Shown in pieces: positions 8,102 through 36,853 of a stretch of DNA of 64,000 nt (its first letter is position 1; every line of letters starts with the position of its first letter). The translations under genes were made by a program, and so were the position numbers. The stretch is from Nanobdellota archaeon (GTDB lineage Archaea > Nanobdellota > Nanobdellia > UBA10117 > ARS21), in assembly GCA_014239585.1 (NCBI GenBank), contig JAAZYP010000001.1:7752-71751 (forward strand), written 5' to 3'. The notes beneath the pieces are model-generated. The model was not told the DNA's origin and made no database searches. It was given only the letters and a program-made list of their open reading frames with translations.

Positions 8102-8138
8102 TAATAATTCTTTTAAACTGAAAAATTCCGAGTTAAAT

Positions 8139-8400
8139 GGGCTAGACAGGCCGGGTAAGCGCGGCTGTTATCTTGTATGCTAAGATGTCGAAGCTTAGAG
8201 GGCGGCATGGACTGTATGCTTTGTCCCTGACATTTAATGTCGAAGCGTTGCCTTTTTCGGCGGGTTATTGTGAGAACCGGGTCAGACGGGGAACCGAGCA
8301 GCCATAATCATGTTTATTCGTGCTTTAGAGTAGCGGCGTGGAGTTATTTGTTAGTAAGATAAAGTTTTCAAGAATTGTCCACCTCTAAGTGTGCCCTTTC
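8139..8400 (+). ncRNA. Signal recognition particle RNA (archaeal 7S type); ends approximate
   Basis: GC-rich island in AT-rich DNA. The 5' end GGGCUAGACAGGCCGGG lies about 25 nt after the TATA-like TTTTAAA (8111-8117). The helix-8 signature is CCGGGUCAGACGGGGAACCGAGCAGCC, with a GGAA tetraloop and AGCAGCC. The 3' GCCC is followed by T-rich sequence. Confidence 0.8.
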
Positions 8401-34842: not shown

Positions 34843-35175
34843 CTAATTCGACATAAGCACCAAACCAATGGCTCCAAATAACAAAAATATACCAATTTGT
34901 TTAAACATTGAACTTATTGCTTGTCTTTTATTGAATTCTAAATTTAGTGAAGAATAAACAATTAAAATCCCATAAATCGTAATAATTGAAGTAGTTGAGG
35001 GAGAGGGACCGATTGCAAGTCCGCCAAGTGCAGAAATTAAATATTTAAGTCTTCCAAATGGATTTTTATGTTTAGATTGAAACCATTTATATTCACTTTT
35101 TGCTAAATTTTTTAATAAAAATCCTGCAAAATAAGCAGAAGACATAAATGTAATAATTAATATTGTTCTAAGCAT
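34843..35175 (-). CDS. Hypothetical membrane protein
   Basis: 110 aa with 3-4 hydrophobic segments. Confidence 0.45.
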   Translation of the reverse strand: MLRTILIITFMSSAYFAGFLLKNLAKSEYKWFQSKHKNPFGRLKYLISALGGLAIGPSPSTTSIITIYGILIVYSSLNLEFNKRQAISSMFKQIGIFLLFGAIGLVLMSN

Positions 35176-35208
35176 AGATTTATAATTAGATTATAATATT
35201 TAATTTTA

Positions 35209-35718
35209 ATGGAAATAATAGATTCAGTTTATAAACCAAGAGAAGATTCATTTCTTCTAAAAAAGGAATTAATAAAATATATTCAGAAAAATAATCCCAA
35301 ATCAGTATTAGATATGGGAACCGGTTCAGGAATTCAGGCAATTACAACAAAAGAAGCGGATATCGACAAAGTTGTTGCATCAGACATAAATCCAGAAGCA
35401 ATAAAATGTGCAAAAATTAATTCTAAAAATTTGGATATAAGCTTTATCCAGTCAGATTTATTCTCAAATATATATGAAAAATTTGATTTAATTGTGTTTA
35501 ATACACCGTATCTTCCACCCGAACCACCTTTGGATCCTCAATGGAGCGGAGGTAAAGTGTTTATTAAAAAATTCTTAAGTGAAGCCAAAAAATATCTAAA
35601 TCCAAAGGGTAAAATCTTATTTGTACATTCATCAGAATCACCAATTTCAGTAAAACATAAAATTTTAGCTCAAGAAAAAATGTCGAATGGTGAAGTATTA
35701 TACATTTCATTAAGATAA
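35209..35718 (+). CDS. HemK/Mtq2-like N5-glutamine methyltransferase family protein
   Basis: Motif I LDMGTGSGIQAI and an NPPY-type motif, here NTPYLP. Confidence 0.75.
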   Translation: MEIIDSVYKPREDSFLLKKELIKYIQKNNPKSVLDMGTGSGIQAITTKEADIDKVVASDINPEAIKCAKINSKNLDISFIQSDLFSNIYEKFDLIVFNTPYLPPEPPLDPQWSGGKVFIKKFLSEAKKYLNPKGKILFVHSSESPISVKHKILAQEKMSNGEVLYISLR

Positions 35719-35746
35719 TTTTATATTGAATCAATACTTTTTTGTT

Positions 35747-36048
35747 GTAGAAAGGCGGGGCTAACCTCGTGAATTGTCTGAGTTAAATTTCAATCTTCGC
35801 GAATGAAATAAATGGGCAATAAGGAAACAAGAGCAACTGTTAAGTGCTTAAAGCAGCGTTTAAAGATAATAGGCCGCGATATGCGAACTTTATTCGATCT
35901 GTTTGACCCTTCTTAGCATCTCTTGAATTCAGTCGAGGCTTACGACCTCATATGCTTGAGCAACTGGTCATCACGTATGGCGCAGTGGGGCAGCAATGAT
36001 GCGTTGGACCTTGACCGCGTGGGCCTATACGCCTTTCAAACTCTTTTT
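35747..36048 (+). ncRNA. Structured ncRNA candidate of about 300 nt; possibly an atypical RNase P RNA
   Basis: GC-rich island. A TATA-like TTTTATATT (35719-35727) lies about 25 nt upstream. The terminal helix GAAAGGCG (35750-57) / CGCCTTTC (36030-37) is followed by oligo-T (36041-48). CR-I-, CR-IV- and CR-V-like motifs sit at 35802-17, 35863-75 and 35883-99. See finding. Confidence 0.5.
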
Positions 36049-36075
36049 AAATTTATTCGGACATACATATGTCCG

Positions 36076-36321
36076 ATGTTAAGCGCATATATCTTAATTG
36101 AAGCAGATGCTGGAAAAGAACGAGAAATCCTTGAAGCTTTGAATGAAAATGAAAGTGTAGTGGACGTAAGTATTGTTTATGGACAATACGATATAATTGC
36201 AAAAATAGTACTTAATGAAGGTGACGAATTACCTAAATTTATGATGGATTTAATTAGACCAATTGAAGGTATTAGAGGAACATCTACTTTACTTTCGGCT
36301 TACGACCCGTCCCGACCTTAA
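36076..36321 (+). CDS. Stand-alone Lrp/AsnC ligand-binding (RAM) domain protein, 81 aa
   Basis: MLSAYILIEADAGKEREILEALNENESVVDVSIVYGQYDIIAKI... is a typical RAM-domain pattern. The track ORF (from TTG 35923) is trimmed to the in-frame ATG. Confidence 0.7.
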   Translation: MLSAYILIEADAGKEREILEALNENESVVDVSIVYGQYDIIAKIVLNEGDELPKFMMDLIRPIEGIRGTSTLLSAYDPSRP

Positions 36322-36853
36322 TTATTAAATTTTTAACTAAGTAGGAATTCGGTATCAACATTGTATTTCGACTATTCATCTCTAGTTGAGTATTTAGTAA
36401 ATTAATTTTCTTAATAACGCCATTAAAATCTTTAAACTTGATTTCATCGCCCTTCTCCAACTTTTTAGTTGAGATAATATACAATCCAGCAACTATGTTT
36501 GGAACAAAATCTCTTAATGCTAAGGAAAACGATATCAAAATAATTCCTGCAAATACAAATAACAAAAAGTTCATTACGCTAATTGCAATTCCAATTTGAA
36601 TTAATGCCGCAATCACTGCAATCAAAATAATTGTGTATTTTACAAATTTATATGCGATTGCCTCGGGATCAAATTCAATACCAAGTGTTTTCTTCAAATT
36701 ACCATTCAAATTAATTCGCTTTACAATCCTTTTTGTGAAATTACCAAATAGATTTCCTAAAAAAATACCTGAAATAAATATAATTCCTGCTAGACCGAAA
36801 GTCAGACTTGCGTATTTTAATGCAGAATAGGCTGCAGGTGACATACTAAACAT
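36284..36853 (-). CDS. Small-conductance mechanosensitive channel family protein (short MscS-like)
   Basis: Three TM segments followed by the beta domain GDEIKFKDFNGVIKKINLLNTQL. Confidence 0.7.
   Translation of the reverse strand: MFSMSPAAYSALKYASLTFGLAGIIFISGIFLGNLFGNFTKRIVKRINLNGNLKKTLGIEFDPEAIAYKFVKYTIILIAVIAALIQIGIAISVMNFLLFVFAGIILISFSLALRDFVPNIVAGLYIISTKKLEKGDEIKFKDFNGVIKKINLLNTQLEMNSRNTMLIPNSYLVKNLIIKVGTGRKPKVK

Follow-up and report, generated by a model that had tools for sequence, protein, structure and literature searches.

In this study we followed up a guanine-cytosine (GC)-rich element of about 300 nucleotides (nt) in a 64,000-nt stretch of a Nanobdellota archaeon genome (contig JAAZYP010000001.1 of assembly GCA_014239585.1). 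This whole stretch is called the window here, and all positions without a contig name refer to it. The element lies on the forward strand between an upstream gene for a HemK2/MTQ2-type protein methyltransferase (TIGR00537) and a downstream gene, co-directional in this genome and in the sister genus, for a protein with an AsnC-type ligand-binding domain (36076-36321). An original prediction, made by eye, had described it as a structured RNA with RNase P-like motifs and had left three readings standing: a minimized or rearranged RNase P RNA, two adjacent RNAs, or an unrelated new RNA. The source genome (G000) comprises 444 kb in 21 contigs and is 87% complete.

The locus has the properties of a transcription unit of its own. 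The GC content of 100-nt segments is 0.38-0.51 over 35750-36049 against 0.18-0.39 upstream and 0.26-0.35 downstream, which confirms the claimed enrichment, and the part that we describe below as a circle reaches 0.445 against 0.324 in its flanks. Upstream stands the TATA box TTTATATT, invariant in all nine aligned family-level relatives while the adjoining bases vary; a simple regular expression finds a TATA-like word 31-54 nt upstream of helix H2 (see below) in 17 of 20 homologues, such words being frequent in AT-rich DNA. A T-run, probably an archaeal terminator, follows the element, and most homologues have T-runs after the 3′ end of the RNA as well. We found no coding signal: the sole overlapping open reading frame (ORF; 35923-36321, TTG start) is the AsnC-like frame extended upstream of its ATG at 36076. 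The TATA-like box, the oligo-T tract and the lack of convincing coding potential, all three noted in the original prediction, thus hold on closer analysis. The strand count gives 224 G.U cells against 15 A.C cells, and therefore the RNA is read from the forward strand. Single-sequence folding is only marginally better than that of shuffled sequences (forward strand z = -1.98, 4 of 100 shuffles doing equally well; reverse strand z = -0.80) and hence proves little; the real support comes from the comparison with relatives. The region is a discrete, structured and independently transcribed RNA gene, and of the three readings it is the unrelated new RNA that these data support.

Searching with blastn we found full-length homologues in eight further genomes of the same family (69-97% identity). 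Two covariance models were built, R1 from the nine-copy alignment and R2 from 15 copies. According to R2, on which the distribution of the RNA rests and which was run on incomplete genomes, 23 of the 39 genomes of the order carry one copy each: 9 of the 10 others in the window's own family, 6/6, 1/1 and 6/17 in other families, and 0/1 in each of four further ones. A class-wide sample of 151, searched under stricter filters, includes 132 genomes from other orders, and in none of these was the RNA detected. A motif scan of metagenomes found 41 stretches, of which R2 confirms 30 and does not confirm the other 11.

The alignment of relatives supports a conserved structure. When the nine copies were aligned with MAFFT and folded with RNAalifold, 27 of 77 pairs showed compensatory change. 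The larger counts come from alignments fitted to the structure of the model itself: in 20 genome copies the share of paired cells is 94.5% of 1355, with 38.8-49.4% in slid controls, and both partners have changed in 50 of 73 pairs, a number reached by none of 500 shuffles; with 41 distinct sequences, the 30 metagenome copies included, this rises to 54 of 73 pairs. The conserved structure is also upheld independently, because the nine-copy MAFFT result agrees with these model-fitted counts. The structure is under strong purifying selection, and the RNA is single-copy and retained in genomes of 0.4-1 Mb.

How is this RNA made? The archaeal splicing endonuclease's bulge-helix-bulge (BHB) motif is described, in the passages of PMC7714728 and PMC5829648 that we draw on, as a 4-base-pair helix between two 3-nt bulges on opposite strands, with further helices outside. 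Judged by sequence and covariation, the closing stem of the new RNA is a canonical motif of this kind, in which an outer helix (H1), a central helix (H2) and an inner helix (H3) are separated by the two bulges (Table 1). The perfect end pairing that had been noted from the single sequence proved to be real, since all eight pairs of H1 show compensatory changes among 20 homologues; in H3 five of six pairs covary, H2 has 4 base pairs in 19 of 20 homologues, and the 5′-strand bulge is 3 nt long in 20 of 20 aligned homologues (UAA, AAA, AUA or AGA). The strict 3-4-3 motif together with an H1 of at least 5 base pairs is found in 12 of the 20. As a control for the cleavage rule we used the tRNA-Tyr of the same genome. 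ARAGORN predicts three intron-bearing tRNAs in G000, Tyr-GTA (C11:176543-176646), Thr-GGT (C11:172756-172871) and Ile-TAT (C14:34757-34864), and the intron of tRNA-Tyr sits in a canonical 3-4-3 BHB. Because this tRNA must keep an anticodon loop of 7 nt, the cuts fall between the second and third nucleotide of each bulge. Applied to the new RNA, the same rule places the cuts at 35763/35764 and 36028/36029, which is exactly the joint seen in RNA-derived contigs. The genome encodes both enzymes that such a pathway would need, EndA (PF01974, 89.1 bits, a 157-amino-acid ORF) and RtcB (PF01139, 274.7 bits).

Table 1. Features of the RNA gene and of its predicted product (positions in the window)
Feature	Position	Strand	Remarks
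TATA box TTTATATT	35720-35727	+	about 26 nt upstream of G35750, the first paired base
H1, outer helix, 5′ strand GAAAGGCG	35750-35757	+	pairs with 36030-36037, 8 base pairs; part of the removed 5′ leader
H2, central 4-base-pair helix, 5′ strand GGGC	35758-35761	+	pairs with GCCU 36023-36026
3-nt bulge UAA of the 5′ strand	35762-35764	+	putative cleavage between 35763 and 35764
Mature RNA, 265 nt, probably circular	35764-36028	+	36028 joined to 35764; back-joint in RNA contigs
H3, 5′ strand CCUCGUG	35765-35771	+	pairs with 36016-36022; stem below the junction loop after circularization
Arm I, hairpin of variable length	35772-35822	+	RNAfold hairpin in 20/20 homologues
Arm II, long irregular hairpin, helices S5-S9	35823-35930	+	most conserved part
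AUAGGCC, near-invariant internal-loop sequence of arm II	35869-35875	+	complementary to GGCCUAU
Arm III, hairpin, helices S10-S12	35932-36015	+	conserved base GGCU/GGACC with bulged A; tip variable
H3, 3′ strand CGCGUGG	36016-36022	+	pairs with 35765-35771
GGCCUAU	36022-36028	+	precursor: in H3, H2 and 3′ bulge; circle: loop across the ligation junction
3-nt bulge AUA of the 3′ strand	36027-36029	+	putative cleavage between 36028 and 36029
H1, outer helix, 3′ strand CGCCTTTC, also listed as CGCCUUUC	36030-36037	+	part of the removed 3′ trailer
T-run TTTTT	36044-36048	+	likely archaeal terminator

The evidence for the circle itself comes from RNA. We compared the interval 35200-36600 with assembled contigs of four public metatranscriptome runs from four studies (X7, X17, X18 and X19), labelled marine or seawater metagenomes. 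One contig of 295 nt in run X7 reads 35903-36028 and then continues with 35764-35932, that is, 265 nt followed by an overlap of 30 nt. The side of the joint 36028-35764 is 126 nt long in the X7 contig and 40 nt in X19, where two contigs contain it. Contigs of X17 and X18 stop at 35764 or 36030, and their loose ends read sequence ending at 36028 or starting near 35766, so that junction-spanning sequence was recovered in all four runs examined. Some of the contigs are 91-99% identical to the window; differing from it by 1-9%, these come from other strains. They are confined to 35764-36030 and leave the flanking genes uncovered, although we do not count the missing cover as evidence. The possibility of two adjacent RNAs can be dismissed on these grounds, since a single RNA-derived contig closes over the whole 265-nt unit. 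A circular RNA of 265 nt with four arms is the best interpretation of the mature product.

Might the joint be an artefact instead, produced by a tandem DNA duplication in some strains, an assembly loop or template switching of the reverse transcriptase, with the true RNA being linear and ending at the stem? The joint is seen in contigs alone, and loops can arise when a De Bruijn assembler closes a short repeat. However, four runs of four studies, with different strains among their contigs, all show this joint or loose ends that read across it, and the joint falls exactly where the BHB motif and the tRNA-Tyr control predict. It also leaves out the leader and trailer bases, which a tandem copy in DNA would carry, and the genome and metagenome copies that are flanked on both sides are single and linear between their flanking genes. 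We therefore regard an artefact as extremely improbable. A stronger alternative accepts the circle and takes it for a short-lived processing intermediate, the functional form being a linear RNA opened elsewhere or the linear precursor. Archaeal rRNAs pass through BHB-made circles and are then re-linearized, as parts of PMC7714728 and PMC12918454 report, and contigs cannot measure which share of the RNA is circular. Against this, the X7 contig is self-closing, and junction-spanning sequence occurs in every run. The loop formed across the junction is moreover complementary to a near-invariant internal sequence, suggesting that the joined form is the one that is folded and selected. Permanence also has a precedent, in that the 23S rRNA of some archaea remains circular or permuted (sections of PMC7758197 and PMC12918454). 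On balance we consider a mere intermediate unlikely, though less so than an artefact.

A further question concerns the gene downstream: could the excised RNA be a BHB intron in the 5′ untranslated region (UTR) of the AsnC-like gene, similar to that of HVO_1309 in Haloferax, so that excision regulates the mRNA and the circle is a by-product? The arrangement in the source genome and in the sister genus would allow it, as the co-directional gene starts about 40-50 nt after the stem, and an intron in a 5′ UTR has been demonstrated in H. volcanii according to the relevant part of PMC7714728. However, the gene downstream of the RNA is convergent in three relatives (G006, G021 and G025), so that no mRNA follows there, and in another (G023) the arrangement is inverted, with the AsnC-like gene upstream of the RNA. 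In addition, the covarying pairs, 54 of 73, lie within the excised part, which a by-product would not need, and between the stem and the ATG stand both the T-run and a conserved TATA-like word. This word (36044-36057) overlaps the T-run, lies about 25 nt before the downstream ATG and may serve as promoter of the AsnC-like gene. Because the downstream gene varies and the excised part covaries, we take the RNA to be a stand-alone unit and not a 5′-UTR intron, a role that we rate as very unlikely. Directly before the ATG, and after the TATA-like word, we noted an inverted repeat CGGACAT ... ATGTCCG (36058-36075, forward strand) that could be an operator or a 5′ hairpin of the mRNA; it is less well paired in relatives of the same genus.

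The upstream neighborhood is more regular. The RNA follows the methyltransferase gene in seven of nine loci examined. When we gathered 80 loci by methyltransferase synteny and ran R2 on 20 archaeal ones, a single locus (L052) contained the RNA; ORFs were mapped in 13 of the 19 RNA-less loci, and in all 13 genes follow the methyltransferase, with no RNA-sized gap. As the enzyme is a protein methyltransferase of the HemK2/MTQ2 type, the adjacency is taken as synteny and not as a functional link. Between the S19e and methyltransferase genes of the window lies an ORF of 110 amino acids (34843-35175, reverse strand) that has no Pfam or NCBIfam match; several relatives have an ORF of similar size at this place.

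A further rival reading is a minimized, rearranged or circularly permuted RNase P RNA, or another permuted universal RNA. Short strings do resemble the conserved regions (CR) I, IV and V of RNase P RNA by eye, and a permuted gene can escape covariance models. There is also a precedent in the Thermoproteus signal recognition particle (SRP) RNA, which is permuted and matured through a BHB (PMC4731332, in the part consulted). Nevertheless, scanning the whole window with Rfam cmscan at gathering threshold returned three tRNAs only, and at E<=10 the interval 35600-36200 gave four chance-level matches, none of them to an RNase P or SRP family, not even locally, although arms II and III each form an unbroken hairpin domain of some 100 nt. 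In the same two scans the large-subunit, small-subunit and 5S rRNA models did not match the region, and neither did any Rfam family in 11 homologue loci at E<=0.1 or 0.01. The CR-I-, CR-IV- and CR-V-like strings are present, but apart from AUAGGCC they are not conserved beyond the genus or family. The P4 helix that had been proposed to co-vary (35807-35812 with 35889-35894) is paired in 72.2% of 54 cells, shows no compensatory change and is equalled by 284 of 500 shuffles. The P2-like helix (35765-35769 with 35934-35938) has no compensatory change either and competes with H3, whose covariation was given above. Of the supposed P3-like hairpin, the hairpin survives as arm I, within 35772-35822 and present in all 20 homologues, and its RNase P-specific character does not.

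Canonical copies of the universal RNAs are found elsewhere. The source genome encodes a full-length archaeal RNase P RNA (RF00373) on contig C14 (54698-54996; model positions 1-288; 82.4 bits, E 5e-24, just under the gathering score of 84) with the motifs GGAAAGTCC and GGTGGCTTAT. It starts 626 nt downstream of the 3′ end of a 23S rRNA gene (in locus L001, RNase P RNA at 1501-1799 on the forward strand, 23S rRNA gene at 1-875). With a canonical RNase P RNA present on this contig and no model match at the new locus, the RNase P identity has to be given up. An archaeal SRP RNA (RF01857) lies in the window itself at 8135-8400 on the forward strand (266 nt, 84.8 bits, E 3e-20; gathering score 96.5), and 5S rRNA is also encoded elsewhere in the genome. 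Since all three are present, no universal RNA is missing. The same separation holds in the relatives: within the order, RF00373 has matches in 23 of the 39 genomes and RF01857 in 30, every time at loci other than that of the new RNA, and in one relative (G005) the three RNAs lie apart at C1:79739, C1:22492 and C1:53009. We consider it extremely improbable that the new RNA is a disguised RNase P or other universal RNA. The case also shows that a GC-rich island that looks 'RNase P-like' in an AT-rich archaeal genome should be checked with covariance models and for covariation before it receives a name.

Some observations on the canonical RNAs were made along the way. The RNase P RNA of the source genome is 299 nt long, about 36 nt longer than in two genomes of the same genus (263 nt, 111.8 bits). 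One relative (G007) has two RNase P RNA matches of equal length (C21:4022-4279 and C22:1746-2003; 105.7 and 104.0 bits), which reflect either a duplication in the assembly or the presence of two strains in the bin. The SRP RNAs of all members of the window's family score 79-94 bits and those of other families of the order 95-142 bits; because its scores fall below those of the other families, the family's SRP RNA seems to be divergent or reduced.

Other known classes of RNA did not account for the element. We found no conserved C/D or H/ACA features in it, and blastn-short of the circle against the whole genome returned chance-level words only (best 19 nt, E 0.09), with no paralogue and no extended antisense target. 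Two candidates were dropped: a reverse-strand C/D-box look-alike of sR9 (35927-35978; 17.8 bits, E 0.74), whose box C is not shared by the sister genus and which the G.U counts place on the wrong strand, and a likeness of 35848-35876 to the GTPase-center sequence of 23S rRNA, seen by eye, where the covarying stems differ in the sister genus. A full-text literature search, with most subscription journals outside its scope, turned up no account of an RNA like this from DPANN or Woesearchaeota, and a search by terms within PMC12918454 yielded none there. Scanned as an unrotated linear sequence, the RNA is thus predicted to be a new family unmatched in Rfam.

What would the circle look like? After joining, H3 would become a stem capped by the junction-spanning loop GCCUAUA, and arms I to III leave the same junction. 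Arm I varies in length between 24 and 55 nt among homologues, and its basal helix changes by eye from UUGUCU/GGGCAA to UCACUU/GAGUGA between genera. Arm II contains a near-invariant core, AAGRGCAACUGU opposite RCAUCUCUU with a 4x1 asymmetric loop, and a wobble pair G35824.U35929 (columns 88/212) that is G.U in all 41 sequences; in the same set its helices S5 to S9 have 5, 5, 7, 3 and 3 covarying pairs. For helices S10, S11 and S12 of arm III the numbers are 6, 6 and 2.

The internal-loop sequence AUAGGCC of arm II suggests a tertiary contact. It is complementary to GGCCUAU, which in the precursor is distributed over H3, H2 and the 3′ bulge and in the circle would lie in the loop across the ligation junction. 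Of 139 cells between the two motifs 95.7% are paired, whereas slid controls reach 7-49%. Two pairs have changed in both partners; in two homologues (L042 and L046), where the 3′ position has A in place of G, a C-to-U change matches it in both H3 and AUAGGCC. Copies from the metagenome scan are unusable for testing this pairing, because the scan pattern held both TAGGCY and GGGCCTAT constant. Several observations speak against the contact: the pairing is carried mostly by invariant bases, one homologue (L135) alters the H3 partner without a matching change in AUAGGCC, and two others (L051 and L136) have GACGGCU in place of AUAGGCC. Because most of its bases are invariant, we treat the contact between AUAGGCC and the junction loop as hypothetical.

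Taken together, it is very probable that the locus is a stand-alone gene for a new structured RNA family, not RNase P, whose product is excised by the tRNA-splicing machinery and closed into a 265-nt circle. The transcript would begin near 35748-35751, some 26 nt past the TATA box, and stop at the T-run. The ends of the transcript are predicted from sequence and covariation to pair into the BHB processing stem in the order H1, AUA, H2, UAA and H3. EndA would then cut between the second and third nucleotide of each bulge, and RtcB would join U36028 to A35764, giving the junction seen in the RNA-derived contigs; these roles are assigned from the presence of both enzymes in the genome and from the known pathway. 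The circle would fold into its four arms, the H3 stem with the junction loop followed by arms I, II and III. In the precursor the leader would hold GCCU in H2, so that excision may free GGCCUAU, and the freed sequence might pair with AUAGGCC of arm II and lock a compact core, for which the covariation gives slight support.

A number of findings weigh against this picture. The RNA went undetected in 16 of the 39 genomes of the order (52-93% complete), and is therefore either not universal or diverged beyond the model. The covariation counts on 20 and 41 sequences carry the bias, mentioned above, of alignments fitted to the model's structure. Eight of the 20 homologues have a relaxed processing motif, three with a 2-nt 3′ bulge and five without an adjacent H1; these may need an endonuclease of broad specificity, or processing may differ there. 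Some DPANN endonucleases may indeed accept relaxed BHB forms, as a portion of PMC5829648 indicates. The RNA evidence consists of assembled contigs and not of raw reads, and contigs give no strand, ends or abundance. The joint was looked for in RNA runs, and DNA can contaminate RNA libraries. Finally, the joint carries an ambiguity of 2 nt, so the cut may lie 1-2 positions further on both strands.

Which function could a circle of this kind have? The RNA is not a cis-regulator, not an RNase P RNA and not an SRP RNA. It may work in trans, as a ribozyme or as the scaffold of a ribonucleoprotein (RNP), and owe its exonuclease resistance and its final fold to circularization. We favor such a role, tentatively, because the RNA is single-copy and strongly constrained, with a near-invariant asymmetric-loop core, and because it persists in genomes of 0.4-1 Mb. 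Carried further, and as a speculation of the same order, the circle could be the core of a novel RNP or ribozyme in one marine DPANN (Woesearchaeota-like) order, reaching its active fold, with the junction loop GGCCUAU paired to the internal AUAGGCC, only after BHB excision and circularization. If so, it would join rRNA, RNase P RNA and SRP RNA as one more structured RNA of housekeeping type, and be the first such RNA with the tRNA-splicing machinery as an obligatory folding switch.

The new RNA shares features with several known systems and differs from each of them. Bacteria have large orphan structured RNAs, OLE, GOLLD, ROOL and raiA, that are lineage-restricted, complex in fold, strongly covarying and have near-invariant internal loops, and that had no known function at their discovery. 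Those RNAs belong to bacteria and are, as far as is known, linear, whereas the new RNA is archaeal, probably matured through a BHB and circular. Archaeal RNase P RNA (RF00373) has a similar length of about 300 nt, paired ends and a high GC content in AT-rich genomes; the new RNA, in contrast, forms a four-arm junction, matches no model and has neither a conserved CR-I or CR-V nor a covarying P4. A parallel in maturation is that of the archaeal pre-16S and pre-23S rRNA circles, which, according to the passages used from PMC7714728 and PMC12918454, likewise have a promoter, inverted flanks with a BHB stem, excision by EndA and ligation. In some archaeal lineages the 23S rRNA is even permanently circular or permuted (PMC7758197, PMC12918454, again in part). 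Unlike these, the new RNA is no rRNA fragment; it has 265 nt, a transcript of its own and is found in one order only. The permuted SRP RNA of Thermoproteus is also a structured RNA, neither rRNA nor tRNA, that is functional through circularization, as far as the part of PMC4731332 consulted here goes. The Thermoproteus RNA, though rearranged, belongs to a universal family, whereas here the canonical SRP RNA is separate and the circle belongs to no known family. Introns of tRNAs and the 5′-UTR intron of HVO_1309 have the 3-4-3 motif, the cleavage positions and the circularized excised part in common with the new RNA (an excerpt of PMC7714728). However, those introns are excised to give ligated exons as the product, and their circle is for the most part a by-product, whereas here selection acts on the excised part. 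The 'exons' of the new RNA are a leader of about 14 nt and a trailer of about 20 nt that covary merely as a stem.

In conclusion, the maturation route of this RNA is already known, and what is new is an RNA family with the excised circle as the selected product. With the junction, the cleavage sites and the candidate tertiary contact defined to the nucleotide, the case is directly testable. The BHB circles known from archaea are rRNA intermediates, introns of tRNAs or UTRs, and one permuted universal RNA. A dedicated gene with a conserved, folded circle as its sole evident product would extend what the tRNA-splicing machinery is known to be used for, and it would add a class of structured RNA to the reduced genomes of DPANN archaea, where each retained gene likely matters.

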